Shown here: one piece after another, positions 4,132-46,126 of the stretch
Layout: each line of letters begins with the position of its first letter
Numbering within the stretch: position 1 is the stretch's first letter
Source of the DNA: Candidatus Aenigmatarchaeota archaeon
GTDB lineage: Archaea; Aenigmatarchaeota; Aenigmatarchaeia; CG10238-14; SCSR01
NCBI GenBank assembly: GCA_016198705.1
Contig: JACQIA010000013.1
Span: 1-48,572 of the forward strand
Length of the DNA: 48,572 bases
Reading direction: 5' to 3'
Notes under the pieces: model-generated
What the model was told of the DNA's origin: nothing
Databases searched by the model: none
What the model saw: the letters and a program-made list of their open reading frames with translations, nothing else
Made by a program: the position numbers and the translations under genes

Positions 4132-4138
4132 ATAAAAG

Positions 4139-11487: not shown

Positions 11488-11508
11488 TAAAAATTTAACA
11501 TTAGATAT

Positions 11509-13535: not shown

Positions 13536-13750
13536 AAAATTAATTTTTCTTCCAATATAGTCGCACTGCCACCAAATTTTTTAATGAAAGCTGCTATTTC
13601 TATCAATTTCGATAAATCGCTATGTTTCCAAACAGAATGTTGAATCATTTTAGCATCCATTTTATTCAAATCTCTCCAAACTTTAGTTTCTATTCTTGTA
13701 GGCTCTCTAGGTACATCATAAATTAAAACAAACTCCTTCACACGATTCAC
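13532..13750 (-). CDS. Stand-alone Cas2/VapD/PaaX-central-domain-like protein
   Basis: FVLIYDVP...WRDL...MIQHSVW matches the Cas2 ferredoxin-fold pattern (YD...QxSV); 72 aa. No cas1 or CRISPR array nearby. Confidence 0.7.
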   Translation of the reverse strand: MNRVKEFVLIYDVPREPTRIETKVWRDLNKMDAKMIQHSVWKHSDLSKLIEIAAFIKKFGGSATILEEKLIF

Positions 13751-13756
13751 CTAATA

Positions 13757-13774
13757 ATGTAAGACGTCTTACAT
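13757..13774. promoter_or_regulatory. Perfect 18-bp palindrome, putative operator of the Cas2-like gene
   Basis: ATGTAAGAC|GTCTTACAT lies between the minus-strand BRE/TATA-like AGAAAAGTTTATC (13778-13790) and the GTG start at 13750. Confidence 0.7.
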
Positions 13775-13827
13775 CAAGATAAACTTTTCTATACTTTGAA
13801 ACATAAAAACAGATGATAGAAAATTTG

Positions 13828-13878
13828 TACCATTACAAAAACTCATAAAACAAAAAATTTAAATAGTCTGTAATGGTA
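13828..13878. promoter_or_regulatory. 10-bp inverted repeat flanking the fic TATA box
   Basis: TACCATTACA (13828-13837) and TGTAATGGTA (13869-13878) are separated by 31 nt containing TTTAAATA (13858-13865). Confidence 0.6.
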
Positions 13879-13887
13879 AATAAATCT

Positions 13888-14748: not shown

Positions 14749-14749
14749 A

Positions 14750-15994: not shown

Positions 15995-15999
15995 AAATA

Positions 16000-16815: not shown

Positions 16816-16821
16816 AATATA

Positions 16822-17841: not shown

Positions 17842-17862
17842 GTTATTGACTATCTATATTAA

Positions 17863-19038: not shown

Positions 19039-19085
19039 TAAAACTTAATGATTTCTATTTTATTTAATAGTTTCTATGACTTTCT

Positions 19086-30818: not shown

Positions 30819-32501
30819 TTGCAGCAGTATAAATTAATGGATACTGATGTTTTGGTAATAGGGTCTGGTGGGGCAGGATTAAGGGCTGCGATAGAAGCCT
30901 TTGATGTTGGGGTAAAAGTTTTAATAATTAGCAAATCTGGGATTGGAAAAGCTCATACTATAAATGCGGAAGGTGGAGTGAACGCAGCTTTAGGCAATGT
31001 AGACAAGGAAGATAATTGGAAAATCCATTATGAAGATACGCTAAAAGAAGGGCATTATTTGAGTAATAAGAAGATGGCTGAAATTCTAGTAAAAGAAGCT
31101 ATAGATAGTGTCTTGGAATTGGCTAGATGGGGACTGCCTTTTAATAAAACAAATGAAGGCAAATTGGATCAAAGATATTTTGGGGCGCATAGTTATAGAA
31201 GAACATGTTATGCGGCTGATAGAACAGGCTTGGCGATTTTAAAAACTCTAATAAAGCAAGTTAAAAAAAGGAAAATAAAATATATAGATGGCATAATTGT
31301 AACGTCTATTCTGGCTAAAAGTAATTTTGTATATGGCGTAACATGTGTAAATTTCAAAACTGGAGAATTTTTCGTTATCCAAGCTAAAGCTATTATCCTT
31401 GCTACAGGTGGCTTTACACGCGTCTATAAAGTTAGCACCCATCCTGAGGAATCTTATGGCGATGGGATTGCAATGGCTTATAGAATCGGGACTGAACTGC
31501 AGGATATGGAGATGATACAATTTCATCCAACAGGAATGGCTTTTCCAGCAAAGTATAGGGGAATTCTAGCAACAGAGGCACTTAGAGGGGAAGGAGCTAA
31601 ATTGTATAACTCTAAAGGTGAAAGATTCATGGGAAAATATGATGCAAAAAGAATGGAACTTAGTGCCAGGGATATTATAGCTAGGGCAATTTATACTGAA
31701 ATTGAAGAGGGTAGGGGAACCAAAAATAATGGTGTTTGGCTAGATATAACACATTTAGATCCCAAAGTTATAAAGAAAAAATTACCTAAGATGTACAAGC
31801 AATTTTTAAAATTGGCAAAAACAGATATTACGAAAGAGAAGATAGAGGTTACTCCTACTGCTCATTATTCAATGGGTGGCATTAAGGTAAATTCAACAAC
31901 TACAGAAACTAAAACTAGAGGTCTATTTGTCGCTGGCGAAATATCAGCAGGACTTCATGGTGCGAATAGATTGGGTGGGAACTCCTTAGCTGAAACTTTA
32001 GTGTTTGGTAGAAGAGCTGGTGTATTTGCCGCAAAACTAGCTAAGAAAACGAAATTTCAAGAAATGGATTTGGCGCGAATTAAAAAAGAGTACAAAAGAA
32101 TCACATCGCCCTTCAAAAGGGGTAGGAAACTCGAAATAACAGAGCATATGTTAAAGGAAAAAGTTAGAAAAGTGATGTGGGAATATGCTGGAGTTAAACG
32201 AGATGAGAAAATGCTTAAATTGGGACTGAACGAAATAAATAAAATTAAGAAATTGGCGAATAAAATTTCTGTTTCCGGTAGTTTGAAAAGAAACCATGGC
32301 TGGCTAGATTTCTTAGATACTGATAATATGCTGGTGGTTTGCGAGGCTATTGTTCGATCAGCATTAATGAGAAAAGAAAGCAGAGGGGCACATTGGAGAA
32401 GTGACTATCTGGAAAAGAATGATAAGGAATGGCTGGTAAATATAATTTGTAGGCAGGTGAATGGGAAGATGCTTTTGGAAAAAGCTAAAGTGATATTATG
32501 A
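30819..32501 (+). CDS. Succinate dehydrogenase/fumarate reductase flavoprotein-like subunit
   Basis: GSGGAG, AHTINAEGG (FAD His), QFHPT, TEALRGEG, HYSMGG, HGANRLGGNSL and ESRGAH; TTG start after GGTGA. Confidence 0.88.
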   Translation: MQQYKLMDTDVLVIGSGGAGLRAAIEAFDVGVKVLIISKSGIGKAHTINAEGGVNAALGNVDKEDNWKIHYEDTLKEGHYLSNKKMAEILVKEAIDSVLELARWGLPFNKTNEGKLDQRYFGAHSYRRTCYAADRTGLAILKTLIKQVKKRKIKYIDGIIVTSILAKSNFVYGVTCVNFKTGEFFVIQAKAIILATGGFTRVYKVSTHPEESYGDGIAMAYRIGTELQDMEMIQFHPTGMAFPAKYRGILATEALRGEGAKLYNSKGERFMGKYDAKRMELSARDIIARAIYTEIEEGRGTKNNGVWLDITHLDPKVIKKKLPKMYKQFLKLAKTDITKEKIEVTPTAHYSMGGIKVNSTTTETKTRGLFVAGEISAGLHGANRLGGNSLAETLVFGRRAGVFAAKLAKKTKFQEMDLARIKKEYKRITSPFKRGRKLEITEHMLKEKVRKVMWEYAGVKRDEKMLKLGLNEINKIKKLANKISVSGSLKRNHGWLDFLDTDNMLVVCEAIVRSALMRKESRGAHWRSDYLEKNDKEWLVNIICRQVNGKMLLEKAKVIL

Positions 32502-33889
32502 AATATAGGATTGAAAAGGATTCTTTAGGAAATGTGAAAGTGCCCATAGAATTTTACTGGGGGACTCAAACCCAACGGGCAATAGAAAATTATCCTAATG
32601 TTGGATTGAGATTTCAAAAAAGATTCGTGATAGCGCAAGCAATCATTAAGAAGGCTGCTGCCGTTGCAAACATGAAGACTAGGAGATTAGAGAAAATAAT
32701 AGGAAATGCTATTGTAAAGGCTGCAAGTGAAATAATTGATGGAAACCACTTAGAGCAATTCATCCTTCCGCCCCATCAATCTGGTGCTGGTGTATCTCAG
32801 AACATGAATATGAACGAAGTTATTGCAAACCGTGCGATAGAAACCCTTGGTGGCAAAAAAGGAGATTATAAGTTGGTCCATCCCAACGACCATGTTAACA
32901 TGTCTCAATCTACAAATGATACAATTCACACTGCTATCCATGTTGCAGCATATACCACATTGCAAGAATTATTAATTCCTAGTTTAGAAAAATATCAAAA
33001 GGAAATGGAGAAGAAGGCTAATCAGTTTAAACATATTATAAAATCTGGCAGGACACACTTACAGGATGCTGTGCCTTTGACATTAGCACAAGAATTTAGT
33101 GGTTATTTTATTCTAAATAGGATTGAAACTTTGAGGAATGTTTCCAGACATCTGCTTGATTTGCCTTTAGGCGGAACTGCTGTGGGGACAGGAATTAATG
33201 CTCATCCAAAATATGGAAAAATTGCCATAGGAGAGATTAACAAGATGACTGGTTTTAAATTTAAACAAACAAGGCATATGTTTGCTTCAATGCAAAATCT
33301 AAATGTTGAATTAGAAGTTAGTGGCGCTTTGAAAACGATTGCTTCTAATTTCATAAAAATTTCAAATGATTTGAGGCTACTTTCGTCTGGCCCTGTAACT
33401 GGATTGTGGGAAATTACACTACCCCCATTACAGCCTGGTTCCTCTATCATGCCTGGGAAAATAAATCCAGTGATGCCTGAGATGATGCAGATGATTTGCT
33501 ATCAAGTGATTGGAAATGATGCGACTATTACACATGCAACATCGGAAGGTGAATTGGAATTGAATGTCATGATGCCGGTGGTTGCTTATAATTTACTGAA
33601 CTCCATTGAACTCTTAGCGGCTGGGATAAGCGCATTTGCAGAAAAATGTGTGAAAGGAATTAAAGCCAACGAAAAAAGAATCAAAGAACTCCTAGAGAAA
33701 AATCCAATTATAATTACTGCCTTGACACCGTATATCGGATATAACAAGGCTGCTGAAGTTGTGAAGAGAGCTTATAAAGAAAATAAAACAATCGAAGAAG
33801 TTGTACTGGAGATGAAATTACTTGATAAAAAACAGGTGGGAAAAATAATGGATTTCAAGAAGCTTGTAAAAAGCAGTGCAATTAAATAA
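32498..33889 (+). CDS. Class II fumarate hydratase / aspartate ammonia-lyase family
   Basis: GSSIMPGKINP, GRTHLQDAVP and HPNDHVNMSQSTND. QSGAG is intermediate between FumC and AspA signatures. Confidence 0.88.
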   Translation: MKYRIEKDSLGNVKVPIEFYWGTQTQRAIENYPNVGLRFQKRFVIAQAIIKKAAAVANMKTRRLEKIIGNAIVKAASEIIDGNHLEQFILPPHQSGAGVSQNMNMNEVIANRAIETLGGKKGDYKLVHPNDHVNMSQSTNDTIHTAIHVAAYTTLQELLIPSLEKYQKEMEKKANQFKHIIKSGRTHLQDAVPLTLAQEFSGYFILNRIETLRNVSRHLLDLPLGGTAVGTGINAHPKYGKIAIGEINKMTGFKFKQTRHMFASMQNLNVELEVSGALKTIASNFIKISNDLRLLSSGPVTGLWEITLPPLQPGSSIMPGKINPVMPEMMQMICYQVIGNDATITHATSEGELELNVMMPVVAYNLLNSIELLAAGISAFAEKCVKGIKANEKRIKELLEKNPIIITALTPYIGYNKAAEVVKRAYKENKTIEEVVLEMKLLDKKQVGKIMDFKKLVKSSAIK

Positions 33890-33900
33890 AGCAATTTACA

Positions 33901-33960
33901 ATGAAAATTCAATCAATCCTGCTACAGAAGAATAATTGTCGGAAGGTACGCATAATTTAA
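33901..33960 (+). pseudogene. Relic of an aldehyde dehydrogenase 5' end
   Basis: ATGAAAATTCAATCAATCCTGCTACAGAAGAA reads MKIQSI / INPATEE across a frameshift, matching SINPATEE of the SSADH at 40373. Confidence 0.4.
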
Positions 33961-34063
33961 AGATATGCACAGCTAACATATGCAATACAGCTGTCTTAAG
34001 GATAAATTAAATTTGCATAGATTACTTATTCAGTTTAATTTAATAAGAAAGAAATTATTATTA

Positions 34064-34609
34064 GTGTTAAGCAAAGATTTCAAAGAATCCATTCCTATAG
34101 AAATAGTATCCATAACAGGAGGCATAGCAGCTGGGGTTATCCTCGCCATCGGCTTAAATCTGTTGGAATTGATACCAAGCATGCTAATTTTAATTCCGGG
34201 TTTCCTAGAAATCAATGGAAGCATATCAAGTTCACTAGCCAGCAGATTGGCAGCAGGTATGTTTCTTGGTGTAGTAAAACCTAATTTCAAAACACATCGC
34301 ATACTCGTTGGTAATGCAATTGCAGGCATCGTCTTATCTTTAATTGTTAGCTTGCTTTTAGGCTTGATGGCCTATTTTTTTGAGTTTATTTTTTTCAACA
34401 CTCTGAATACGAAAATAATTTTCATATCTTTGCTGGCGGCTATGATAAGCAGTCCTATAATGATTTTAGTAACAATAATTTTCTCCATATGGTTCTTTAG
34501 AAAAGGCTACGACCCTAACAACATCATGGGCCCCTATATCACAACATTAGGAGATATCATTGGAATTATGTCATTAATTCTAGCATCTGTAGTGGTGATT
34601 TTTCTATGA
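34064..34609 (+). CDS. MgtE-family membrane domain (divalent cation transporter)
   Basis: Five TMs and GYDPNNIMGPYITTLGD; GTG 34064 preferred to ATG 33980. Confidence 0.8.
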   Translation: MLSKDFKESIPIEIVSITGGIAAGVILAIGLNLLELIPSMLILIPGFLEINGSISSSLASRLAAGMFLGVVKPNFKTHRILVGNAIAGIVLSLIVSLLLGLMAYFFEFIFFNTLNTKIIFISLLAAMISSPIMILVTIIFSIWFFRKGYDPNNIMGPYITTLGDIIGIMSLILASVVVIFL

Positions 34610-35316
34610 AGGCCAAAGCCAAACATATTAGCCTGGAATTGAGAAAAAGAATAGTAAAAATCCCAAGAAAGGAGCATCATAAAATTTTACACCATATACA
34701 CAAAAAGCATTTTGTGTCCAAGGAAACCCTATTCTACATGAAAGAGTATGGTCCAAGATCGCATTTAATTCATGAAATTGTCAAGGACAGTATCCCTGTT
34801 CTTTTTCTATCGGTTATTTTAGCACCATTTGCTGGTCTAGCTTTGCGTTCTATATTTGATAAGTTATCATTTTTAATTCCATTAGTTATAATGGTACCAG
34901 CACTTAATGGCATTATAGGCGAGCTGGGTAGTACGATAGCCTCTAAATTTACCACAGGCCTATTTTTAGGCAAGATTAAAGGAACCCCCTGGAAGTCTAA
35001 TTTTGTTAAAATATTACTGCACGCCAAGATAAAAGTTGCAATAGCTTCCGTATTATATCTTTCCCTGTTAGCTTTATTTTTATCAGCTGTCAAAGGCTTT
35101 CAATTTGACTTGATGTTTGCACTAAAAATAATTTTTATAGGACTAGTTTCTTCAATTACCATAGTAGGCATATTGTTTGTAATTTCAGTTATTGGCGGGA
35201 TAATTATATTTAAAAGAGGTGAAGACCCTAATAATTTCTTGATCCCTATGTCAACTTCGATTGCAGATGTGGTGACATTGATAGTAGTCTCTGCACTTGC
35301 TTTATTGCTTTTTTAA
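34606..35316 (+). CDS. MgtE-family membrane domain with His-rich N-terminus
   Basis: GEDPNNFLIPMSTSIAD and EHHKILHHIHKKH; ATGA overlap with the partner gene. Confidence 0.8.
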   Translation: MKAKAKHISLELRKRIVKIPRKEHHKILHHIHKKHFVSKETLFYMKEYGPRSHLIHEIVKDSIPVLFLSVILAPFAGLALRSIFDKLSFLIPLVIMVPALNGIIGELGSTIASKFTTGLFLGKIKGTPWKSNFVKILLHAKIKVAIASVLYLSLLALFLSAVKGFQFDLMFALKIIFIGLVSSITIVGILFVISVIGGIIIFKRGEDPNNFLIPMSTSIADVVTLIVVSALALLLF

Positions 35317-36633
35317 TTAACCTACGTCTTTAATTACATTAGACAAAATTTCCAACCCATAATCAATATCTGACTTAGCGATTATCAAAGGCGGGGCAAT
35401 TCTAATCGCAGATTCGCCTGCGCCCAAAAGTGAAAGTCCTCTCTCAAACGCTTTGTAAACTATTTTATCCCTAAGTTTTCCGTCGGGTTCTTTCGTTATT
35501 TTGTCTTTCACAATCTCAATGCCAATCATCAAACCTATACCTCTAACATCGCCTATGGCTCTTGATTCTTCCTGCAGATCTTTCAAAAATTTCATTATGT
35601 AATTTCCTTTCTTGATGACATTTGGCCCTAGTTTTTTATCCTCCATAAGTTTGATTACTTCCAACCCTGCTGCACAAGCAGTCAGATTACCGCCAAACGT
35701 ACTTGCATGGCTTCCAGGAGGCCAAGTGTTCAATTTCTCATTAAAAACTGTTGCACCCAATGGCAAACCACCGCCTAAAGCTTTAGACAAACATACTATG
35801 TCAGGCTTGACATTGAAATGCTCTATAGCAAGGAATTTACCAGTTCTATAACAACCACTTTGCACTTCATCATCAACAAGCAAAATTTCGTTTTCACTGC
35901 AAATTTTCCTAATTTCTTTTATAAAACCTTCTTCTGGAACAACATATCCACCCTCGCCCTGAATTGGCTCTATAAACAATGCGGCTATCTCATTAGACAA
36001 ACCATTCTTTCTTAAAATATCGTTTATTTCTTCGATACAAGCATCGGCGCAATTATCTTTTGCCCCAACAGGGCATCTGTATGGATTGGAATATGGCAAA
36101 TGTACGACTGGGAGGAATGGATCGAATCCTTCCCTATGCACTTTTTTAGCATAGGTCAAGCTCAATGAACCCATGGTTCTCCCGTGGAAGGCGCCGGAAA
36201 ATGATGCCAACCACTTCTTTTTTGTGCAATATCTGGATAATTTAATCGCCGCTTCTACAGATTCTGTGCCAGAGTTAGAAAGGAACACCCGGTTTAATTT
36301 CATTGAACCAGGAAAAAGTTTTACCAATTCTTCGGAAAACCTAACAGGCAGTTCTTCGTAAAAATCTAGAAAAGCGCCGTGGGTTTCAATTTTGGATTGT
36401 TTGTATATTGCGTTGGCAATCTTCGGATTTTCATGGCCAAAATTCATCACAGCAATGCCAGAATTAAAGTCTAAGTATCGATTTCCATCTACATCTTCAA
36501 AGTTGACTCCAGCGGCTTTTTTGATCACCAATGGATAGACGTGGTTGATAGAATTTGACTGCACCTTATCGTTTCTTCTGACAATTGCCTTGGCCTTTGG
36601 ACCCGGGGGGGTTACCCTAATAACTGGTTTCAT
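35317..36633 (-). CDS. Class III PLP aminotransferase (4-aminobutyrate/ornithine omega-aminotransferase-like)
   Basis: NSGTESVE, AFHGRT, EPIQGEGG, DEVQSG, SKALGGG and STFGGN. Confidence 0.9.
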   Translation of the reverse strand: MKPVIRVTPPGPKAKAIVRRNDKVQSNSINHVYPLVIKKAAGVNFEDVDGNRYLDFNSGIAVMNFGHENPKIANAIYKQSKIETHGAFLDFYEELPVRFSEELVKLFPGSMKLNRVFLSNSGTESVEAAIKLSRYCTKKKWLASFSGAFHGRTMGSLSLTYAKKVHREGFDPFLPVVHLPYSNPYRCPVGAKDNCADACIEEINDILRKNGLSNEIAALFIEPIQGEGGYVVPEEGFIKEIRKICSENEILLVDDEVQSGCYRTGKFLAIEHFNVKPDIVCLSKALGGGLPLGATVFNEKLNTWPPGSHASTFGGNLTACAAGLEVIKLMEDKKLGPNVIKKGNYIMKFLKDLQEESRAIGDVRGIGLMIGIEIVKDKITKEPDGKLRDKIVYKAFERGLSLLGAGESAIRIAPPLIIAKSDIDYGLEILSNVIKDVG

Positions 36634-36667
36634 TAATTATATTTTGTTTCCTGGTAAAATTAATATC

Positions 36668-37516
36668 ATGAAGTTCGCTTGGGCTAATACAGATAGTCTT
36701 GACAAGGCTGATGTTGTACTAGTTGGGGTGCCTGATGAGACTGGTTCTTATGCGAGAAGAAAAAGCTGCAGCAAAGCTCCGGATGCTATAAGAAAAGTTT
36801 CGAACGAAAGGGAGGTGTTTGAAAGGAAAGGTATGAAGACGGTTGCGTTATCGCAGATTTGCCCGATGAATAAGAATATTTATGACTATGGCAACATCTC
36901 GAAAGGTGACGTATCTAAAGTTGTTGGGAAAATTGTTGGTGAAGATAAGATACCAGTAACCATTGGCGGGGACCATTCGATTACAGCTGAAGTCTTGAAG
37001 GGGATTGACAAATTAAGGGAAGATATAAGTATTGTCTATATAGATTCGCATCCTGATTTCATTTGCTCATCTAAGGAATACTATGGTTCGGTGGTTTGCG
37101 ATATTGCTGAGTATAAAAATATTGATTTTAGTTCGAGCATAGAGATTGGCATTAGGGCGCCGGAACCTGAAGAATTAGTAAATGTGCGGAGGAAGTATCT
37201 TAAGACGATTTCATCAATTGGTGTTGAGGCGATGGGCTTAAAAGAGGTTGTTGAAAAGGTAAGGGATAGAGTTAGTGATAACGTTTATGTTTCGCTTGAT
37301 ATGGATGTCATTGATCCTGCATTTGCACCAGGTGTAAGCTCGCCTGTGCCGGCTGGTTTGACTAGCAATCAATTGCTTTATTTAATGACGGAGATTGCAA
37401 AACTGGGGATTATAGGATTTGACGTTATGGAAGTTTGTCCTGATTATGATATGCAAGATATGACATCCCATCTGGCTGCAAGGATTATCATAGAAACAAT
37501 ATCGTGCGTTAAATGA
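36668..37516 (+). CDS. Ureohydrolase (agmatinase/arginase family), atypical
   Basis: GGDHS, DSHPD and SLDMDVIDP Mn ligands; start reassigned to ATG 36668. Confidence 0.88.
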   Translation: MKFAWANTDSLDKADVVLVGVPDETGSYARRKSCSKAPDAIRKVSNEREVFERKGMKTVALSQICPMNKNIYDYGNISKGDVSKVVGKIVGEDKIPVTIGGDHSITAEVLKGIDKLREDISIVYIDSHPDFICSSKEYYGSVVCDIAEYKNIDFSSSIEIGIRAPEPEELVNVRRKYLKTISSIGVEAMGLKEVVEKVRDRVSDNVYVSLDMDVIDPAFAPGVSSPVPAGLTSNQLLYLMTEIAKLGIIGFDVMEVCPDYDMQDMTSHLAARIIIETISCVK

Positions 37517-38349
37517 CAGACGTAAATGAAATTTTGAAAGAATTGGTAAAGACTTGGGTTGCTGGGGAGAAATTATCCGAAGCCATTAGAGTTACTAGGC
37601 AGTTAAACAGAAAAGGTTTGTCTGTAATGATTAATGTTCTTGGGGAGCATTTCAAAGAAAAATCTCCTGTTGAAGGTGTCGTGGAAGAATACATTCGGGT
37701 TGCTGGGGAGATAAAGAAAAACAAGCTGGATGCCAGCATAACTGTAAAGGGAACGGAATTGGGGTTGGATATAGGGAAAGGTTATTTCATGCTAAATTTA
37801 GAGCAGATAGTTACCGCAACCAACAAGGAAAATATTTTTGTATGGCTGGACATGGAAAGCCATGATTACATAAAAGACACTATAGAAGTCTTTCTAAAAT
37901 TGCTGCAGAAATACAGAAATATTGGCATTGTTATACAGGCAAATTTGAAAAGGAGCGAGGGTGATTTGATTAACATAGCATCTAAAAACGGCAGAATACG
38001 ATTGGTGAAAGGGGTATATCATGAAGACGCGGGAATTGCATTCCAAACTTTAAAGGACATTAGAGATAATTACAAGAAATTGATGATATGCTTGTTTAAG
38101 AATTCTAAAAGCTTTGCTCTAGCTACACATGATGAAGAATTGATCAGAATTGCGGTTGAAATGAATAAGAAATTCAAAAGGGATGTGGAATTCCAATTTT
38201 TATTTGGCATGGATGATGCAGCTGGGGGGTTAATTAAGAAAGGCTACAAAGTTTCCATTTATTTGCCATATGGCAAGAATTGGCTTCATTATGTGGAGAG
38301 AAGGTTTGCTGAGATGAGTGCTACGATGCTGCCCCATTTGAAATTGTAA
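37513..38349 (+). CDS. Monofunctional proline dehydrogenase
   Basis: LDME, RLVKGVY, ATHD, EFQ and YLPYG...RRFAE; ATGA overlap with the ureohydrolase. Confidence 0.88.
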   Translation: MTDVNEILKELVKTWVAGEKLSEAIRVTRQLNRKGLSVMINVLGEHFKEKSPVEGVVEEYIRVAGEIKKNKLDASITVKGTELGLDIGKGYFMLNLEQIVTATNKENIFVWLDMESHDYIKDTIEVFLKLLQKYRNIGIVIQANLKRSEGDLINIASKNGRIRLVKGVYHEDAGIAFQTLKDIRDNYKKLMICLFKNSKSFALATHDEELIRIAVEMNKKFKRDVEFQFLFGMDDAAGGLIKKGYKVSIYLPYGKNWLHYVERRFAEMSATMLPHLKL

Positions 38350-38394
38350 GTAAACGAATTTATTTCGAAATTGGTATATATTTAATTAGATATA

Positions 38395-39861
38395 ATGACA
38401 AAAACTTACCAGCTTTTCATAGACGGTAAATGGCTTAATTCTAAATCCGCTGAAACATTTTACAGAATAAATCCCGCTAACCCAAAGGAAATTCTTGGCA
38501 AATTCCAGCAGGGAACTAAAGACGATATTGATAAAGCTGTGGATGCTGCAGAAGATGCGTTTGGCAAATGGAGCTCAATTCCGCCCCCTAAACGAGGGGA
38601 AATTTTGTTCAAGATAGTAGAATTACTTAGAGTAAATAAAGAAAGGCTAGCAAGATTGATGACAAAAGAGATGGGAAAAATCTTGCTGGAAACCCGCGGC
38701 GATGTGCAAGAGGCTATCGACACCTTTGAATATTTTGCCGGCGAAGGCAGAAGACTATTCGGACATACAACAACAAGCGAATTAAGAGATAAATTTGCTA
38801 TGACTATAAGGAGACCTGTTGGTGTATTTGGCATAATAACACCATGGAATTTTCCTATTGCAATTCCAGCCTGGAAATTAGCTCCGGCATTGATCTGCGG
38901 TAATACAGTAGTTTGGAAGCCTTCCAGCGATACTCCATTATGCGCTATAGAATTAATGAAAATTCTAACTAAAGCTGGCATATCTGATGGAGTGGTGAAT
39001 CTAGTAACTGGCCCTGGAAACACAGCTGGTATGCATTTGGTTAAGCACAAGAAAGTCAGAGGCATATCCTTCACTGGCAATAGAGACACTGGCAAACAAA
39101 TTGTAAAAGAGGCGGGGATTAAAAAAGTTGGTTTGGAGTTAGGAAGTAAAAATGCGATGATAATTATGGATGATGCGAACTTGAAACTTGCATTGGACGG
39201 TGTTATCTGGGGGGCGTTTGGAACTACAGGACAGAGGTGTACTGCTACAAGCAGAGTAATAATTCATGAAACGATAAGGAAAAGGTTTGAGAAGACCCTG
39301 GTAGAGAGGGTTAAAAAATTAAGGCTTGGTTCTGGGTTAAACCCAAGAACCGATGTCGGACCATTGGTTAATAAAGCGGCACGAGAAAAAAGCGCAAGAT
39401 ACACCAAAATCGGCATGGAAGAAGGTGGCAAGCTTATTTGTGGCGGCAAGATTCCGAAGTTAAATGGATTTTTCTTTCAACCAACTGTGTTTACTGATGT
39501 AGCAATTGACATGAAGATTGCGAAAGAAGAGATTTTTGGACCAGTTGTATCTTTAATTCCTGTGAAAAATTTGAATGAAGCTATAAAGGCTGCAAATTCT
39601 GTCGAATACGGATTGAGCTCTTCAATTTATACTAATGATATTAGAACTGCATTTGAAGCTATAGAAAAGATAGAAGCGGGGATTACATACGTTAATGCTC
39701 CAACCATAGGAGCTGAGGTGCATTTGCCGTTTGGTGGGGTGAAGAGTTCTGGGCAGACACGGGAGGCTGGATGGGCTGGTGTGGAGGAATTTTCTGAAGA
39801 AAAAACAGTTTACATAGACTACTCTAATAAGTTGCAGCGTGCGCAGATCGATACTAAGTAA
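38395..39861 (+). CDS. Aldehyde dehydrogenase (semialdehyde/P5C dehydrogenase candidate)
   Basis: TPWNFP, FTG, ELGSKN, GQRC, EEIFGP and PFGG. Confidence 0.9.
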   Translation: MTKTYQLFIDGKWLNSKSAETFYRINPANPKEILGKFQQGTKDDIDKAVDAAEDAFGKWSSIPPPKRGEILFKIVELLRVNKERLARLMTKEMGKILLETRGDVQEAIDTFEYFAGEGRRLFGHTTTSELRDKFAMTIRRPVGVFGIITPWNFPIAIPAWKLAPALICGNTVVWKPSSDTPLCAIELMKILTKAGISDGVVNLVTGPGNTAGMHLVKHKKVRGISFTGNRDTGKQIVKEAGIKKVGLELGSKNAMIIMDDANLKLALDGVIWGAFGTTGQRCTATSRVIIHETIRKRFEKTLVERVKKLRLGSGLNPRTDVGPLVNKAAREKSARYTKIGMEEGGKLICGGKIPKLNGFFFQPTVFTDVAIDMKIAKEEIFGPVVSLIPVKNLNEAIKAANSVEYGLSSSIYTNDIRTAFEAIEKIEAGITYVNAPTIGAEVHLPFGGVKSSGQTREAGWAGVEEFSEEKTVYIDYSNKLQRAQIDTK

Positions 39862-39912
39862 TCGATTTATATCGGGAAAATAATTTTTAATTGAGTTACA
39901 TTTTGGTTTGAA

Positions 39913-40340
39913 GTGAGGGTGAATAATATTTACGATTCAATTATCATTGGCGGTGGTGTAGTAGGATTAGCAGGAGCTATGTATGCTGGAAGAATGCAGC
40001 TGAAGACTTTGGTGTTAGGTGAAATTGTAGGAGGGACGATAATTTTCACAACCGGTATGAAGCATAGGGAATTGAAAGTGCCAGGTGAAAAAGAGTTTAC
40101 AAACAAAGGTGTGCATACGTGCGCCCTTTGCGATGGTTTTTTCTATAAAAATAAAATTATTGGTGTGGTTGGTGGCAGTGATTCTGCGGCAAAAGAAGCC
40201 TTATTACTAACACAATGGACAAAAAAAGTTTACATGATATATAGAGGTGAGAAGATTAGACCTGAACCAGTTAATGCCAGTAGGATAGAATAGAAGATTA
40301 AATAAGGGAATCAAAATTATTGATGTGCCTATTGATAAAT
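39913..40340 (+). pseudogene. Decayed thioredoxin reductase copy
   Basis: Homologous to 46164-47150, with a 35-nt exact match (39979-40013 vs 46227-46261), an in-frame deletion of about 67 codons, then stops (RIE*KIK*G). Confidence 0.85.
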
Positions 40341-40372
40341 AGAAAAATATTGAGTTGTTTAAAGGTGGTTGA

Positions 40373-41740
40373 TTGGCAAAGATAATTTCTATTAATCCAG
40401 CAACAGAAGAAATAAACAAAGAGTTTGAGCTGTATTCTAAAGAACAAGTAGTGAAAATTTGCAAAGATTCTAGAAAAGCATTTAAAGAATGGAAAAATTT
40501 AGACATAAAAGAAAGAGGAAATTACTTAAGAAATCTTGCTGATGTGTTAAGAAGAAAGAAAGAGGAATATGGAAGATTGATAACAATAGAAATGGGCAAG
40601 CCAATTAAACAAGGTGTGGCTGAAGTTGAAAAATGTGCATGGACTGCTGAAGTGTATGCGGATAATGGGGAGAAATGGTTGGAAGAGGAATTAGTTCAAG
40701 CAGATGGCAAGAAACATATAGTAACCTTTGAACCTCTTGGTGTGATACTTTCGGTAATGCCGTGGAATTTTCCATTTTGGCAGGCTTTGAGATTCGGCAT
40801 TCCTACATTAACTGCTGGTAATGTTTCTATCTTAAGGCATTCTAATGTTGTTCCTATGTGTGCTTTAACAATAGAAGAAGCATTTAAAGAAGCTGGTTTT
40901 CCTGAAAATGTTTTCAGAACAATTATTACCGACCATAAACTTGTTGCTTCATTAATTAGAAGCGATTTGATTAATGGAGTTACTGTTACTGGTAGCGTTG
41001 GAGTTGGTTCTAGAGTTGGGCAGTTAGCTGGAAAATACATCAAGAAATTTGTTCTGGAATTGGGTGGTAGTGATCCCTTTGTTGTTTTGGAAGATGCTAA
41101 TATACAGTTTGCATGCAAAAGTGCTGCGCAAGGAAGATTGATTAATTCTGGCCAAAGTTGCATTGCTGCAAAAAGATTTATTGTAGTTAAAGAGATTGCT
41201 GAAGAATTTACAGAAAAATTTGTTGAATTTACCAAGGCTTTGAAGGTTGGAAATCCATTGGAGCAAGATACAGATGTTGGTTCGTTAGTAAACGAACAAC
41301 AGAGACAATTGTTGGAAGCGCAAGTTAAAGATGCTGTAGACAAAGGAGCTACTGTCTTGACTGGGGGAAAGAGAATTGAAGGTAGGGGATTTTTCTATGA
41401 ACCAACTATTTTATCAAATGTCAAAAAAAACATGAAAGTTGTTAAAGAAGAAGTGTTTGGACCTGTAGCACCGATAATTGTTGTAAAAAATGAAAAGGAA
41501 GCTATAAGAGTTGCGAATGATTCTGAATTTGGGTTGGGAGCTAGTGTTTGGAGCACTAATGAAGAAGGGGTTATAAGAGTTGCCAGAGCTTTACAAGCAG
41601 GTGCAGTTTTTGTTAATGGTATAGTTAAAAGCGATCCTAGATTGCCATTTGGCGGAATAAAGAAATCTGGCATTGGCAGAGAATTGTCTCATTACGGATT
41701 GAAAGAATTTGTAAATATAAAAGCAATAAATATTTATTAG
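40373..41740 (+). CDS. gabD: NAD(P)-dependent succinate-semialdehyde dehydrogenase (GabD1/Sad-like)
   Basis: INPATEE, MPWNFPFWQ, ELGGSDP, GQSCIAAKR and SDPRLPFGGIKKSG. Confidence 0.88.
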   Translation: MAKIISINPATEEINKEFELYSKEQVVKICKDSRKAFKEWKNLDIKERGNYLRNLADVLRRKKEEYGRLITIEMGKPIKQGVAEVEKCAWTAEVYADNGEKWLEEELVQADGKKHIVTFEPLGVILSVMPWNFPFWQALRFGIPTLTAGNVSILRHSNVVPMCALTIEEAFKEAGFPENVFRTIITDHKLVASLIRSDLINGVTVTGSVGVGSRVGQLAGKYIKKFVLELGGSDPFVVLEDANIQFACKSAAQGRLINSGQSCIAAKRFIVVKEIAEEFTEKFVEFTKALKVGNPLEQDTDVGSLVNEQQRQLLEAQVKDAVDKGATVLTGGKRIEGRGFFYEPTILSNVKKNMKVVKEEVFGPVAPIIVVKNEKEAIRVANDSEFGLGASVWSTNEEGVIRVARALQAGAVFVNGIVKSDPRLPFGGIKKSGIGRELSHYGLKEFVNIKAINIY

Positions 41741-41747
41741 GATATAG

Positions 41748-41966
41748 GTGATTTTGATTGTAATCGAACTTATTGGGTTTACATTAGATATGATTGGCAA
41801 AATTTTAGTTGGCATAAGTGTTATATTGGTTCATACCCGAGTAATGAGAGAACGTAAAATAGATAAATTGGTTATTAAAGCGATGGGAAGAGAGAAAGTT
41901 TTAGCAATATCAGGCATAGTTTTGATTATTTTGGGTTATTTGTTGCAATTGCCCACAAAAGTGTAA
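41748..41966 (+). CDS. Small 2-TM membrane protein
   Basis: Two hydrophobic helices separated by a basic loop. Confidence 0.65.
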   Translation: MILIVIELIGFTLDMIGKILVGISVILVHTRVMRERKIDKLVIKAMGREKVLAISGIVLIILGYLLQLPTKV

Positions 41967-42027
41967 TTACTTATGATTTATTAAAAAGCTAAGTTAAAAT
42001 TTATTATAAGAAAGTAAATTATTAGTA

Positions 42028-43437
42028 ATGATATTGAAACATAAAGGTTTTAAAAGATCTATGAAACTGTACTCTGAAGCCTTCAAGATAATTCCTTATG
42101 GTGTTAGCTCAAATACGAGACTCTGGCATACCATTTGTCCTACGTTTGCGCCATGTGCTATTTTCATCGATAGAGCGAAAGGTTCTCATTTATGGGATGT
42201 AGACTGGAATGAATATATTGATTACAGGTTAGCATTTGGCCCAGTAATCTTAGGACATAGCTACAAGCCTATTACCAATTTTGTTCACAAGTATGAAGAC
42301 AGAGGCTTGGTATATGCATTGGATAATGAGTTGGAAATAAAAGTAACAAAACAAATTTTGTCGATGGTTCCATGCGCTGAGATGGTGAGATATGCTAATA
42401 CTGGAACTGAAGCAACGATGACTGCAATCAGAATTGCTAGGGCGTTTACTAAGAAAGACAAGATAATAAAGTTTGAAGGGCATTACCATGGGCATCACGA
42501 CTATGTTCTATTTTCAACCGATATCAAATTAGAGAAATTGACAAAAGATGTTAGAACTGTGCCAATGTCATTAGGAATTCCACATCCAATTAAGAATTTG
42601 GTAATAACTGCAAGATGGAACGATTTCGAAGGGATAGAGAGATTGGTTAGGAGGCATGCGGACGAAGTGGCGGCAATTATATGTGAGCCTATAATGGCCA
42701 ATGCTGGGGTGATAAACCCTAAGAAAGGCTTTTTGAAACACTTGAAAAAACTTTGCAACGAGCATGGTATAGTTTTTATCATGGACGAAGTTAAGACAGG
42801 ATTCAGGCTTGCACCAGGCGGGGCCCAAGAAGTTTTTAAAGTAAAACCAGATTTGGCAACATTTGCAAAGTCAATGAGCAATGGTTATCCTATATCATGC
42901 ATAACAGGCAGAAAAGAAGTTATGGAGATGTTGGCTCCTGGGAAAGTGGTTCACGGTGGCACTTATGCCAGTAATCCTGTATCTCTCGCTGCAACTTTGG
43001 CAACCTTGAAACTACTCAAACCAAAAGTGTTCAAGCACATATATTCCTATGGAAATGCTTTGATGAAGACAGTTCATGAAATTTTAACAGAAAGGGGTAT
43101 ATCACATGTCGTGCAAGGTTATCCTTCGATGTTTCAATTTTACTTTACAAAAGCTGGTAAGGCATTTCAAGAATACAGAGACTGGAAACATGTAGATACA
43201 GATACGTTTGCAAGATTACAATTTGAATTGCTCAAGCGTGGGGTGATGCTTGACGAAGACAATGGTGAACCTATGTATGTATGTTATTCTCATTCGAAAG
43301 AAGACTTGCATAAAACCTTAGAGGCATTTGAAGAGGCCATACCAAACGCGTTAGTTCCAAAATCTAGTTTAGGTAAACATTTCACATTACATACAGGATT
43401 AACAAGACGTGTGTCCCATGTCGGACATTTCACCTAA
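42028..43437 (+). CDS. Class III PLP aminotransferase, glutamate-1-semialdehyde aminomutase-like
   Basis: GPVILGH, NTGTEAT, FEGHYHG, DEVKTGFR, FAKS and GTY. No other hem genes nearby, so hemL function is not assigned. Confidence 0.88.
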   Translation: MILKHKGFKRSMKLYSEAFKIIPYGVSSNTRLWHTICPTFAPCAIFIDRAKGSHLWDVDWNEYIDYRLAFGPVILGHSYKPITNFVHKYEDRGLVYALDNELEIKVTKQILSMVPCAEMVRYANTGTEATMTAIRIARAFTKKDKIIKFEGHYHGHHDYVLFSTDIKLEKLTKDVRTVPMSLGIPHPIKNLVITARWNDFEGIERLVRRHADEVAAIICEPIMANAGVINPKKGFLKHLKKLCNEHGIVFIMDEVKTGFRLAPGGAQEVFKVKPDLATFAKSMSNGYPISCITGRKEVMEMLAPGKVVHGGTYASNPVSLAATLATLKLLKPKVFKHIYSYGNALMKTVHEILTERGISHVVQGYPSMFQFYFTKAGKAFQEYRDWKHVDTDTFARLQFELLKRGVMLDEDNGEPMYVCYSHSKEDLHKTLEAFEEAIPNALVPKSSLGKHFTLHTGLTRRVSHVGHFT

Positions 43438-44590
43438 ATACACTATAAACTTTCATATTTCTTTTCGCTAGTTCCTTGAAGAAAATTTCTGGATTGATAC
43501 ACATCTCTGGTGGTAACACTCCTGCCTGATTTATTTGTCCATTAATTATCATCTGGGCTGCAATAGATGGCGGTACTCCAGTATCCCAAGAACCTGCAGA
43601 TAGATTCCATTTCTTGTTAGTAACAGCCTTGCAATATACTACAATTCGCTTCTTCGTGTTTTTACTATAGCCAGTAAGTTCAACTCTCAAAAATTCTATG
43701 TCATTCACTTTAATTTTTTCTGATGGGATCAATTGATTTAAAATCTTTACAGTAAAATCTCGAGGCACAATTTCTGCATCTCTGAATTTAATGGGTTTCT
43801 CTGAGGCTAATCCAGCATCTATCAAGAATTTTACTTTATTTACAAAATCGAAATCAAATCCACCTTTAAAGCTACAATTTTTTATACCTTTGTCCTTGAA
43901 TGCAACGGGGAATGTAGCAACTTCCGAATGCAATGTATAGAAGCATGCTGCTTTGTCCACAGGTGATGGGAATTTAATCTCTTCCATTCCACTCAAGGGC
44001 TCTACAAATTTAATTCTTCCATTTTGAAACACGGCTGGTTTTTTCATAAATTCATCAAAAATTGTATACATAGAATATGGGACTACAAATGGCATGTTAT
44101 AATTTGTGTAATCCTCGTCAGCGAATTGAACGTGAATAGAATCTATCTTATCAAGAAACCTAGCACCATAAGCTGCCATTATATTTGTTATTCCAGGAGT
44201 GGCACCGCAACCAAGAATTGCAATCAAATTTTTTCTTTTGAAACGTTTATGAAGTTTTAATTGTTTTTTAGTCATATGAAATAATCCCCCCAAGTCAACA
44301 TAGTTTACATTTGCATCAAGAGCAGCTTTCATAACCTTCAGATTCATGTAGTACTGTGTCGAGTTGATTACAACATCGGAATTCTTCAGAATTGAAAGAA
44401 GTTGTTTATGGTTATTGACATCGATTTGAACACCTTTCACATTTTTCTTTTTGAATGATTTTGCAAAACTTTCAGCTTTTCTTTTATCCCTGCCTGCTAC
44501 AATAATTTCGCAATTCTTACAAGTTTCAACTAAGTCTATAACAGTAATTTTTCCCATCTCACCATATCCGCCTATCACGACGATTTTCAT
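43430..44590 (-). CDS. Saccharopine dehydrogenase-like oxidoreductase (lysine 6-dehydrogenase / carboxyspermidine dehydrogenase family)
   Basis: GGYGEMG, YVDLGG, GCGATPG, HSEVAT and GVLPPE. Confidence 0.85.
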   Translation of the reverse strand: MKIVVIGGYGEMGKITVIDLVETCKNCEIIVAGRDKRKAESFAKSFKKKNVKGVQIDVNNHKQLLSILKNSDVVINSTQYYMNLKVMKAALDANVNYVDLGGLFHMTKKQLKLHKRFKRKNLIAILGCGATPGITNIMAAYGARFLDKIDSIHVQFADEDYTNYNMPFVVPYSMYTIFDEFMKKPAVFQNGRIKFVEPLSGMEEIKFPSPVDKAACFYTLHSEVATFPVAFKDKGIKNCSFKGGFDFDFVNKVKFLIDAGLASEKPIKFRDAEIVPRDFTVKILNQLIPSEKIKVNDIEFLRVELTGYSKNTKKRIVVYCKAVTNKKWNLSAGSWDTGVPPSIAAQMIINGQINQAGVLPPEMCINPEIFFKELAKRNMKVYSVFR

Positions 44591-44632
44591 TCCACCACAA
44601 TAATTATTTAGGGTAGTTTTCTAATTAAGAAT

Positions 44633-46126
44633 ATGGATTCTAAATATAGGATGTATATCAACGGGGAGTGGGTTGATTCTGAAAGTAAAGAAACATTTGA
44701 TGTAATTAATCCTACTACTGAAGAAGTTATAACGGAAGTTCCTCAAGGAACTAAAGAGGACGCGAAAACAGCTATAGATACTGCTAGGGAATCGTTTGAC
44801 AAAGGTGTTTGGAGCAATAAAACGCCTGCAGAGAGGGCACGCGTAATTTGGAAGTTGTCTGACTGGGTTGAGGATAATGCTGATTCGCTAGCTAAGCTTG
44901 AATCAATGAATGTTGGCAAGACAATCAAATATAGCAGAGATTCGGATATACCATTCATCATTGACAATCTGAGATTTTTTGCTGGGTGTGCTAGAATTTT
45001 AGAAGGGAGGTCTGCTACGGAATATTCAGGAATGGGGACTAGCATAATCAGACGTGAGCCTTTGGGTGTTGTTGCTGCTATTGTACCATGGAATTATCCT
45101 TTGTATATTGCTGTATGGAAGATTGCACCTGCATTAGCAGCTGGCAACTCGTTAGTAATCAAACCCGCTAGCTATACACCATTAACACTTTTGGAATTTA
45201 CAGAGATGGTTGAAAAGGCTGGCGTGCCTAAAGGAGTTTTCAATGTTGTAACAGGTCCTGGTGAAGTAATCGGAAGTGAATTGGCAAGCAGCAAGAAAGT
45301 GGATATGATCGCTTTAACTGGAGATACTAATACTGGCAAGAAGATAATGCAAATGGCTTCTAATAATGTCAAAAGACTTCATTTGGAATTGGGAGGGAAA
45401 GCACCATTGATAGCTTTACCAGATGCTGACATAGAAACTGTGGCTCAAGGAGCAGTAGTTGGCGGTTTCTGGAATACAGGACAGGATTGCACTGCAGTGA
45501 CTAGAGTGATAATCAATGAAAGCATTTATGAAAAAGTTGTGCATAGGATGGTTGAGAAGGCAAAGAAGTTTAGATTGGGTAATCCTTTGGATAAATCAAC
45601 CGATATGGGACCTTTGGTATCAGAAAGGCAGAGGGATAGGGTTGAAGGATTTATTAAACAAGGTGTTGATGATGGAGGTAAGATTATTGCTGGCGGTGGT
45701 AGACCTAAACATTTGAAGAAAGGCTATTTCTTAGAACCAACCATATTGAAAGATACAACACAAGACATGACTGTCTGCAGAGATGAGATTTTCGGTCCTG
45801 TTATCGCAGTCTACAGTTATGAAAAACTTGATGATGCAATTGAAGATGCGAATGACATTGATTATGGATTAGCTGCATCTGTTTATGGAAAAGATATAGC
45901 TGCTTGCATGAAGGTTGCAAATAAATTAGACTTTGGAACTGTTTGGATAAATGAGCACGGAATTTTAGCATCAGAAATGCCGCATGGTGGATTTAAACAA
46001 TCGGGCTTCGGCAAAGATTTGTCGTCGTATTCATTCGAAGAATATACAAGAATTAAGCATGTTTATGTTGATTTGACTGGCGAAGCAGTAAAGTCCTGGC
46101 ACTATACTGTGTTTGGCGGGAAATAA
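44633..46126 (+). CDS. Aminoaldehyde dehydrogenase (gamma-aminobutyraldehyde dehydrogenase-like)
   Basis: PWNYPL, HLELGGKAP, GQDCTA and SEMPHGGFKQSGFGKDLS, typical of the PatD/YdcW group. Confidence 0.85.
   Translation: MDSKYRMYINGEWVDSESKETFDVINPTTEEVITEVPQGTKEDAKTAIDTARESFDKGVWSNKTPAERARVIWKLSDWVEDNADSLAKLESMNVGKTIKYSRDSDIPFIIDNLRFFAGCARILEGRSATEYSGMGTSIIRREPLGVVAAIVPWNYPLYIAVWKIAPALAAGNSLVIKPASYTPLTLLEFTEMVEKAGVPKGVFNVVTGPGEVIGSELASSKKVDMIALTGDTNTGKKIMQMASNNVKRLHLELGGKAPLIALPDADIETVAQGAVVGGFWNTGQDCTAVTRVIINESIYEKVVHRMVEKAKKFRLGNPLDKSTDMGPLVSERQRDRVEGFIKQGVDDGGKIIAGGGRPKHLKKGYFLEPTILKDTTQDMTVCRDEIFGPVIAVYSYEKLDDAIEDANDIDYGLAASVYGKDIAACMKVANKLDFGTVWINEHGILASEMPHGGFKQSGFGKDLSSYSFEEYTRIKHVYVDLTGEAVKSWHYTVFGGK

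Follow-up and report, generated by a model that had tools for sequence, protein, structure and literature searches.

A probable accessory island of predicted amine and amino-acid catabolism genes, arranged in three modules, in a reduced archaeon of the Aenigmarchaeota

The stretch of DNA analyzed here (the window: 48,572 nucleotides, contig JACQIA010000013.1 of the Candidatus Aenigmatarchaeota archaeon assembly GCA_016198705.1) is the entire contig C72 of a host bin of 1,083,303 bases in 102 contigs (G000). Between 30.8 and 46.1 kb it carries genes for amine and amino-acid catabolism that, as judged from sequence, are truly linked and are arranged in modules rather than in one funnel. Genes were identified from a listing of open reading frames (ORFs), Pfam and NCBIfam profile scans and comparison with solved structures, and their contexts were compared with three other species of the genus (G001, G002 and G003), with members of the same family (G110) and class (G252), and with a survey of 301 sampled genomes of the phylum.

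The region begins with module C, on the forward strand: an SdhA/FrdA-type flavoprotein of 560 amino acids (30,819 to 32,501; PF00890, 324 bits; PF02910, 91 bits) and a class II aspartase/fumarase-family lyase (32,498 to 33,889) whose gene overlaps that of the flavoprotein by 4 bp. Module A consists of the class-III omega-aminotransferase AT1 (35,317 to 36,633, reverse strand; NF004426) and, on the forward strand, a ureohydrolase (36,668 to 37,516; PF00491, 203 bits), a monofunctional proline dehydrogenase-like protein (ProDH; 37,513 to 38,349; PF01619, 96 bits) and the aldehyde dehydrogenase ALDH1 (38,395 to 39,861; PF00171, 571 bits). The ureohydrolase and ProDH genes overlap by 4 bp, and the ureohydrolase start is likely 36,668 (282 amino acids) and not 36,545, because the latter would overlap the divergent AT1 gene. 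Module B comprises a succinate-semialdehyde dehydrogenase (SSADH)-like enzyme, ALDH2 (40,373 to 41,740, forward; NF006915, with solved SSADH relatives), the HemL/GntE-like class-III transaminase AT2 (42,028 to 43,437, forward; GntE model), an oxidoreductase of the saccharopine-dehydrogenase fold that resembles carboxyspermidine dehydrogenase (CASDH) and is here called SacDH-like (43,430 to 44,590, reverse; PF03435 and PF16653), and the PatD-like aminoaldehyde dehydrogenase ALDH3 (44,633 to 46,126, forward; NF010000). Every aldehyde dehydrogenase and class-III aminotransferase gene of the host sits on this contig. The genes named in a preliminary description of this DNA are all intact ORFs at or near the places it gave, including a malic enzyme, a glutamate dehydrogenase (GDH)-like gene and a lipoylated complex at 9-20 kb; its list omitted the SacDH-like gene, which is the most conserved partner, as well as a truncated trxB copy and an MgtE-like pair.

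Within the genus, these genes are confined to the host. The DNA from 28,573 to 48,572 matches G001-G003 only over a P-type ATPase gene, a pair of MgtE-like ORFs (33,980 to 35,316, forward; PF01769 in both) that separates the lyase from the remaining island genes, and a full-length thioredoxin reductase-like gene, TrxB (46,164 to 47,150, forward; TIGR01292, 291.8 against a cut-off of 343.45). At the nucleotide level the MgtE pair is 70-73% and the full-length trxB 77-80% identical in the three congeners. On contig C17 of G001, the ATPase gene (843 to 3,073) is directly followed by the MgtE pair (3,099 to 4,374), and the sole gene between MgtE and TrxB (5,283 to 6,254) is an SDR. Protein searches for the flavoprotein, SacDH-like protein, ureohydrolase, ProDH, aldehyde dehydrogenase and class-III aminotransferase found none of them in any of the three congeners (0/3), so that the region resolves into two blocks specific to the host species (30.8-33.9 kb and 35.3-46.1 kb), with conserved backbone genes around and between them. 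The stretch at 9-20 kb is shared across the genus, mostly at 72-84% nucleotide identity. We regard 30.8-46.1 kb as probably an accessory catabolic island of about 14 kb, whose three modules recur elsewhere in the phylum. The island may have been gained by the host or lost by the other three species; its genes and those of the backbone have similar identities to G110 (37-64% and 53-60%, respectively).

Between ALDH1 and ALDH2 lies a truncated trxB copy of 126 codons with an internal deletion (39,913 to 40,293, forward; TRX_reduct, 121 bits, profile positions 102-185 only). It is 79-80% identical at the nucleotide level to the host's own full-length trxB and 75-82% identical to those of the congeners, and looks like a recombination scar or a pseudogene; recent self-duplication was rejected as its origin, the identity to the host's own gene being too low. 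Two ORFs with a 4-bp overlap make up the MgtE-like transporter, and G001 has the same split. In a metagenome locus (L213), an MgtE pair and a lyase adjoin a SacDH-like gene.

That the contig, or the island within it, was mis-binned or mis-assembled from another organism is extremely improbable. The bin consists of 102 contigs with an estimated contamination of 2.24% (at 96.8% completeness), and three junctions, ATPase to flavoprotein, trxB fragment to SSADH and ALDH3 to TrxB, are unbridged among the contig pieces listed. Against such an artefact, the backbone genes that flank the island blocks and lie between them are 70-84% identical at the nucleotide level to the three congeners, and the nearest relatives of the island genes come from the same phylum. 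The composition of the contig is typical of the bin (GC 0.378 compared with 0.375 for the rest; rank 7 by tetranucleotide distance among 37 contigs of at least 5 kb), which speaks against mis-binning. Moreover, the island recurs, with 0-1 differences, in contigs from groundwater runs of the same study, and a relative of about 95% identity in a lake-water metagenome of another study has the junctions of lyase with MgtE and of ALDH1 with the trxB fragment. These two junctions, and that of MgtE with AT1, are bridged by contigs from other samples. No RNA run was listed among the sequencing runs that contain the stretch, which has no bearing on whether it is expressed. One low-depth contig (3.2) in run X6 fuses ALDH1 to the SSADH-like gene (window 38,679 to 40,620, with 19 other letters between) and omits the trxB fragment. 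Recombination between the two paralogous aldehyde dehydrogenase genes may account for this contig, as may chimeric assembly.

The host is most likely a reduced DPANN archaeon of the Aenigmarchaeota. Profile searches of its genome, each of which gave positives in several control genomes, returned no citrate synthase, SdhB, class I fumarase, cytochrome bd, COX1, NadA or ALAD, and no pyruvoyl arginine decarboxylase, fold-III Orn/Arg/DAP-type decarboxylase, spermidine synthase or glutamate decarboxylase. These absences indicate a metabolically reduced cell with no evident respiratory chain and no evident synthesis of its own of agmatine, putrescine or gamma-aminobutyrate (GABA), and support the case, raised in the preliminary description, that the host is a reduced DPANN archaeon; its genome of 1.08 Mb shows no tricarboxylic acid (TCA) cycle. 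Aenigmarchaeota are described as having a very limited metabolism and no TCA cycle, and the main text of the same phylum survey does not contain the words glutamate dehydrogenase, pyruvate dehydrogenase, aminotransferase or malic (PMC8407114). In the account given by a DPANN-wide survey, pyruvate dehydrogenase (PDH) complexes and complex II occur mainly in Micrarchaeota and Parvarchaeota (PMC8407392).

The preliminary description had read the locus as a single linear funnel leading from agmatine through putrescine, 4-aminobutanal, GABA, succinate semialdehyde, succinate, fumarate, malate and pyruvate to acetyl-CoA. In this scheme the ureohydrolase would form putrescine, an aminotransferase 4-aminobutanal, the PatD-like aldehyde dehydrogenase GABA, SSADH succinate, the flavoprotein fumarate, the lyase (as a fumarase) malate, malic enzyme pyruvate and the pyruvate dehydrogenase complex acetyl-CoA. 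Every family that this would require is present, and the ureohydrolase is nearest to agmatinase-type enzymes: it scores 169.7 against the agmatinase model TIGR01230 (cut-off 174.3) and 96.5, below the cut-off of 227.6, against the arginase model TIGR01229, and its solved relatives are proclavaminate amidinohydrolase and agmatinase (108 bits), guanidinobutyrase (96 bits) and arginases (about 69 bits). Its sequence displays GGDHS, DSHPD and SLDMDVIDP, which we take to be ureohydrolase motifs. However, the ureohydrolase is translationally coupled to ProDH and belongs with ProDH, AT1 and ALDH1 to a separate conserved module, traveling with these genes and not with module B, and neither type of arginine decarboxylase and no transporter was found in the host, which leaves agmatine with no evident source. 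The linear funnel is unlikely, and agmatine is not the best supported entry substrate.

Module A most likely leads from arginine, ornithine and proline to glutamate, a reading that, from sequence, would fit better than agmatine to putrescine and that we prefer because it is the simplest to employ all four genes. AT1 scores above the NF004426 cut-off (564.3 against 552), and its best solved relative is 7vno of Pyrococcus horikoshii (397 bits), presumably PH1423. For the P. horikoshii protein PH1423, ornithine delta-aminotransferase activity is reported, with lysine as a further substrate and GABA as a weak one (PMC9986279). ProDH reaches 164 against ProDh_Thermus (cut-off 500), and the best NCBIfam match of ALDH1 is 2-oxoglutarate-semialdehyde dehydrogenase (528.6 against a cut-off of 770). 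Arginine, ornithine and proline would converge at pyrroline-5-carboxylate (P5C) or glutamate semialdehyde and pass from there to glutamate.

In Bacillus subtilis, RocF-RocD-RocA and PutB-PutC form the arginase and proline route to glutamate. Similarly, module A clusters a ureohydrolase, an ornithine-type omega-aminotransferase, a monofunctional proline dehydrogenase and an aldehyde dehydrogenase, which could meet at P5C or glutamate semialdehyde; it differs in that the ureohydrolase is by score closer to agmatinases than to arginases, the aldehyde dehydrogenase lies outside the P5C dehydrogenase family and there is no respiratory chain to receive ProDH electrons. On contig C4 of G110, the orthologs of ALDH1, ureohydrolase, AT1 and ProDH are contiguous, and three of the four loci fetched (G110, G046 and G108) have ALDH1 next to the ureohydrolase ortholog or close by. 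An arginase-family gene is found in 181 of the 301 phylum genomes, mostly as distant members only, with orthologs at 48-56% identity in four others. Across species genomes, one of the 80 ureohydrolase loci kept (on the G108 contig) had another island gene, ALDH1, and 19 loci at 45-50% identity from Nitrosotalea, Nitrosopumilaceae and Thaumarchaeota had no island neighbor in common. ProDH is present in 2 of 41 relatives searched. A ProDH locus in G007 was rejected as a relative of the island, since it adjoins ADP-forming acetyl-CoA synthetase genes and has no synteny with it.

Module B most likely oxidizes a polyamine or diamine to succinate. This route is suggested by the constant company that the SacDH-like gene keeps with an aminoaldehyde dehydrogenase, an amine- or aldehyde-type transaminase and SSADH. 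Enzymes of the saccharopine-dehydrogenase fold use NAD(P) to form or cleave a C-N bond adjacent to an aldehyde. The best solved relative of the SacDH-like protein is the CASDH of Bacteroides fragilis (8deb, 110 bits), to which it aligns over its full length with the catalytic His and the second Glu in register: H221-S222-E223 corresponds to H228-E229-E230, and the Ser in place of the first Glu is invariant in all 8 orthologs. In CASDH, the H-E-E motif is described as central to catalysis (PMC10413350). By motif (H-S-E), by family score (77.5 against a cut-off of 800 for the carboxynorspermidine synthase model) and by partner decarboxylase, the SacDH-like protein fails as a carboxy(nor)spermidine dehydrogenase; no gene of the PF02784 family (fold-III, carboxyspermidine decarboxylase-fold) was found in the host, and the neighbors of the SacDH-like gene are aldehyde dehydrogenases and transaminases rather than polyamine-synthesis genes. 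A search of the ESM Atlas with this protein returned only generic 'saccharopine dehydrogenase family' clusters.

Of the 301 phylum genomes, 8 have an ortholog of the SacDH-like gene (39% identity or more), and contig C4 of G252 has a relative at 54% identity. Among the six ortholog loci fetched, ALDH3 is present in all six, AT2 in four and SSADH in two. Moreover, in 63 informative metagenome loci with more distant relatives the neighbors within 3 kb of the SacDH-like gene include ALDH3-like genes (18 loci), class-III aminotransferases (24 loci, of which 14 are AT1-like and 10 AT2-like) and SSADH-like genes (9 loci), although these counts come from related genomes and hence are not independent. 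SSADH is co-located with module B in the host, G110, G130 and G240, and in G252 an APC permease abuts ALDH3.

The accompanying enzymes are consistent with such a route, although the substrate specificity of aldehyde dehydrogenases and class-III aminotransferases is not readable from sequence. ALDH3 exceeds the cut-off of the aminobutyraldehyde dehydrogenase subfamily model NF010000 (622.5 against 615) and lies below that of the equivalog TIGR03374 (483.4 against 909.3), with PatD 6c43 (426 bits) and YdcW 1wnb (423 bits) as solved relatives. The SSADH-like enzyme falls below its curated cut-off (best model NF006915, 523.2 against 730), and its seven best solved relatives are all SSADHs (399-415 bits). 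These two assignments would also suit the linear funnel, which, on the other hand, leaves the conserved SacDH-like gene without a role. AT2 is just above the GntE transaminase cut-off (526.2 against 525). Through these enzymes a polyamine or diamine would yield an aminoaldehyde, an omega-amino acid such as GABA, a semialdehyde and finally succinate.

The putrescine pathway of Escherichia coli (PatA/YgjG, PatD/YdcW, GabT/PuuE and GabD/Sad) offers a close known parallel to this proposed order of aminoaldehyde, GABA, succinate semialdehyde and succinate, and shares with the island the PatD-type aldehyde dehydrogenase, an SSADH nearest to the Sad type and class-III transaminases. The island has no ortholog of PatA, since AT1 scores 208 bits to PatA compared with 397 to the archaeal ornithine/lysine enzyme and AT2 is HemL/GntE-like. 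Unlike the E. coli pathway, the island has a CASDH-like gene as its conserved first partner and no transporter or regulator, and the host has no TCA cycle to take up succinate.

Lysine (or ornithine) catabolism is a quite unlikely alternative for module B, with the SacDH-like protein as L-lysine 6-dehydrogenase, ALDH3 as aminoadipate-semialdehyde dehydrogenase and AT2 as aminoadipate/5-aminovalerate transaminase. Lysine 6-dehydrogenase is described as having the same fold (PMC10413350), and PH1688 (3abi) matches the SacDH-like protein at 45 bits. Among the 120 relatives listed, JGI names 4 'lysine 6-dehydrogenase' and 4 'saccharopine dehydrogenase (NAD+, L-lysine-forming)', and the solved relative of AT1 accepts lysine. 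Yet the JGI names are automatic, the 3abi match spans residues 49-207 only and the CASDH match is higher, and 3abi is described as missing the H-E-E motif (PMC10413350), whereas the SacDH-like protein has an aligned, invariant H-S-E. In addition, the co-located SSADH of the host, G110, G130 and G240 would be without a role after aminoadipate.

A biosynthetic housekeeping role is very unlikely. In such a scheme agmatinase would supply putrescine, the CASDH-like enzyme would form spermidine or homospermidine, HemL would serve tetrapyrrole synthesis, and an ornithine aminotransferase with ProDH would serve proline. It would agree with the presence of agmatinase in 75.8% of DPANN genomes, as given in the text of the DPANN-wide survey (PMC8407392), with the wide occurrence of arginase-family genes in the phylum and with the biosynthetic nature of CASDH as described for the solved enzyme (PMC10413350). 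AT2 is also above the HemL subfamily cut-off (424.5 against 398), though below that of the HemL equivalog TIGR00713 (422.7 against 527.3). ALAD, however, was found neither in the host nor in 3 relatives searched, which argues against AT2 being the HemL of the haem pathway, and the host also has no pyruvoyl or fold-III arginine, ornithine or carboxyspermidine decarboxylase and no spermidine synthase. Moreover, the three congeners do without all of these genes, and the modules are accompanied by three aldehyde dehydrogenases, which are catabolic by nature.

Module C pairs an aspartase-like lyase with a complex II-type flavoprotein that has no iron-sulfur or membrane partner (no SdhB, SdhC or SdhD). 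The flavoprotein lies below the cut-offs of TfrA (627.8 against 718), sdhA_frdA (562.0 against 567.3) and NadB (402.1 against 452.75). Its best solved relative is SdhA 7d6v (436 bits), and the covalent-FAD His and the catalytic HPT/R/H/R positions align. In a tree it falls within the SdhA/FrdA clade (100/100 support) and outside the NadB clade, and the host and G258 copies stand at the base of a clade of eight copies without an iron-sulfur partner. A NadB (L-aspartate oxidase) role in NAD biosynthesis was rejected on account of this placement and the lack of NadA in the host. SdhA-type proteins are found in 11 of the 301 phylum genomes, a further 13 matches being NadB-type. The SdhB profile PF13085 gave 0 matches in the host (the control being positive in 11 of 14 genomes), and tblastn with the G258 SdhB found nothing at E values up to 0.01; SdhB is also absent from G105, G110 and G130, the last a single-contig genome. 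The flavoprotein thus resembles SdhA, FrdA and TfrA in both Pfam domains, the FAD-binding and catalytic residues and its clade, and differs from complex II and thiol:fumarate reductase in having no iron-sulfur subunit and in its gene context, an aspartase-like lyase joined in relatives by malic enzyme. Its nearest relative, that of G258, sits in a cluster of isocitrate dehydrogenase (IDH), citrate synthase, malate dehydrogenase, SdhA, SdhB and aconitase.

The lyase scores above the aspartate ammonia-lyase subfamily model NF008909 (591.3 against 510), below the equivalog aspA TIGR00839 (522.9 against 681.2) and below the fumC_II cut-off TIGR00979 (526.5 against 664.75). Its best solved relative is the Bacillus aspartase 1j3u (459 bits), compared with 411 bits for the best fumarase; at 40% identity to E. 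coli AspA and 42% to FumC, distance alone cannot assign it. It shares the MSQSTND and GSSIMPGK(I/V)NPVMPE stretches with AspB of Bacillus sp. YM55-1 (1j3u), of which Thr101 is Val in the island lyase and in G105 and Thr in G250, G110 and G130. It differs from AspB in an operon context, with malic enzyme and SSADH, that would suit a fumarase.

The flavoprotein and lyase genes are direct neighbors in G250, G105 and G110, and malic enzyme stands alongside in G105, G110 and G130. In order of transcription, G110 has malic enzyme, flavoprotein, lyase and SSADH, and G105 has malic enzyme, flavoprotein and lyase. G110 further holds AT2, SSADH, lyase, flavoprotein, malic enzyme, SacDH-like, ALDH3 and GDH genes in a contiguous 12 kb, so that the functional linkage proposed earlier is supported by synteny in relatives. 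G250 has two SdhA paralogs (loci L127 and L133), one beside SdhB and the other beside the lyase with no iron-sulfur partner; this second copy is flanked by two subtilases, IDH, an enoyl-CoA hydratase and a thiolase.

Module C would handle C4 dicarboxylates, either leading from succinate to pyruvate or using aspartate-derived fumarate as an electron sink. The gene order in relatives, malic enzyme, flavoprotein, lyase and SSADH, favors an oxidative chain of succinate, fumarate, malate and pyruvate and would fit consecutive steps of the linear funnel; the lyase is also the only fumarase candidate in the host, where no class I fumarase was found. The aspartase-like sequence and the want of an acceptor for succinate oxidation favor a sink running from aspartate through fumarate to succinate. 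The steps from succinate to fumarate and onward, as the preliminary description had them, are weakened by a flavoprotein that has no iron-sulfur or membrane partner and no evident electron acceptor, no oxidase having been found, and by a lyase that passes the aspartase and not the fumarase model and carries the AspB-type motifs MSQSTND and NPVMPE; a strict aspartase is what that description had named as telling against its funnel. The direction of module C and the route of its electrons are what we infer from these contexts. In the reading of the island that we prefer, the genus-conserved GDH-like enzyme would recycle 2-oxoglutarate, and ATP would be gained by way of malic enzyme, the lipoylated PDH complex and ADP-forming acetyl-CoA synthetase.

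Combining modules B and C, we tentatively put forward a two-part scheme that we consider possible and on balance doubtful. The CASDH-like enzyme with its invariant H-S-E would be an NAD(P)-dependent dehydrogenase acting on a polyamine (e.g., spermidine or homospermidine), which it would split at the secondary amine, with both halves passing via the PatD-like aldehyde dehydrogenase, the HemL/GntE-like transaminase and SSADH to succinate, and the flavoprotein without iron-sulfur partner would form with its aspartase-like partner a soluble unit that reduces aspartate-derived fumarate or dismutates aspartate with fumarate. If so, the flavoprotein/lyase unit would be the electron sink of a respiration-free cell. 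The proposed polyamine route appears widespread in DPANN archaea and beyond.

Several observations weigh against an accessory, catabolic interpretation of the island and against the substrates that we infer for its enzymes. No amine or amino-acid transporter, and no APC-type permease, was found in the whole host genome, so that substrate entry is unexplained; the preliminary description had noted the lack of an amine transporter in the window. The electron acceptor that ProDH needs was not found in the host, nor were cytochrome bd or COX1, other means of re-oxidizing NAD(P)H, such as hydrogenases and complex I, not having been searched for. For module A, the ureohydrolase scores higher against agmatinase-type enzymes than against arginases, and ALDH1 departs from canonical P5C dehydrogenases (P5C/glutamate-semialdehyde dehydrogenase, 402 against a cut-off of 648). 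The three unbridged junctions, the relatedness of the genomes behind the module counts and the limits on reading specificity add to these points.

In the literature searched, which included few subscription journals and no supplements, we found no description of the three modules or of the polyamine route. The island would mean that some Aenigmarchaeota carry portable modules for the fermentation of amino acids and amines, one species having gained, or alone kept, 14 kb lacking in its congeners, and it gives a practical starting point for asking what such cells may obtain from their hosts or environment. The SacDH-like protein represents a large uncharacterized branch of the saccharopine-dehydrogenase fold whose genes consistently occur with those of aminoaldehyde and semialdehyde dehydrogenases, and the complex II flavoprotein has been retained over long evolutionary times without its iron-sulfur partner.

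Upstream of the island, the conserved region from 9,051 to 20,228 encodes, according to profile scans, E3, LipA, PDH-type E1a and E1b, a Fic-domain insert, E2, two LplA-type genes, malic enzyme and a short ELFV (GDH-like) dehydrogenase. The set of E1a, E1b, E2 and E3 is complete, and E2 has lipoyl, E3-binding and catalytic domains. E1a is above the PDH-type model TIGR03181 (492.6 against 411.35) and E3 above TIGR01350 (532.7 against 408.8); the 2-oxoacid dehydrogenase is thus predicted to be a PDH-type complex. Together with the alpha subunit of ADP-forming acetyl-CoA synthetase (ACD), which is present in the host, this upholds the acetyl-CoA end of the earlier proposal.

The Fic-domain gene (13,873 to 14,748) lies between E1b and E2 of this operon, its end overlapping the start of E2. 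G001 has no Fic gene there, its E1b and E2 matches standing nearly side by side, and G003 has a 72% identical Fic copy on another contig; Fic genes also adjoin island-type genes in G105 and at L193, a metagenome locus. Elsewhere in the host, contig C100 (L269, 5,002 to 7,115) carries a second PDH-type E1a/E1b pair inside a mevalonate-pathway cluster (mevalonate kinase, HMG-CoA synthase, thiolase and HMG-CoA reductase) that holds no E2 or E3; this E1a is above the cut-off and 56% identical to the window copy. On contig C7 (L270, 2,138 to 4,687), ACD alpha is divergent from a class-I aspartate-aminotransferase-like gene that scores 362 bits, below cut-off, to the GntC model. The sole binding-protein ABC importer of the host is PhnCDE. 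Contig C23 of G002 (2,958 to 3,713) carries an Orn/Arg/DAP-decarboxylase-fold gene that is absent from the host and G001. At the other end of the window (1 to 4,131), an ORF of at least 1376 codons, open at its 5' end and running off the contig start, has an NPCBM-associated NEW3 domain and probably encodes a large surface protein.

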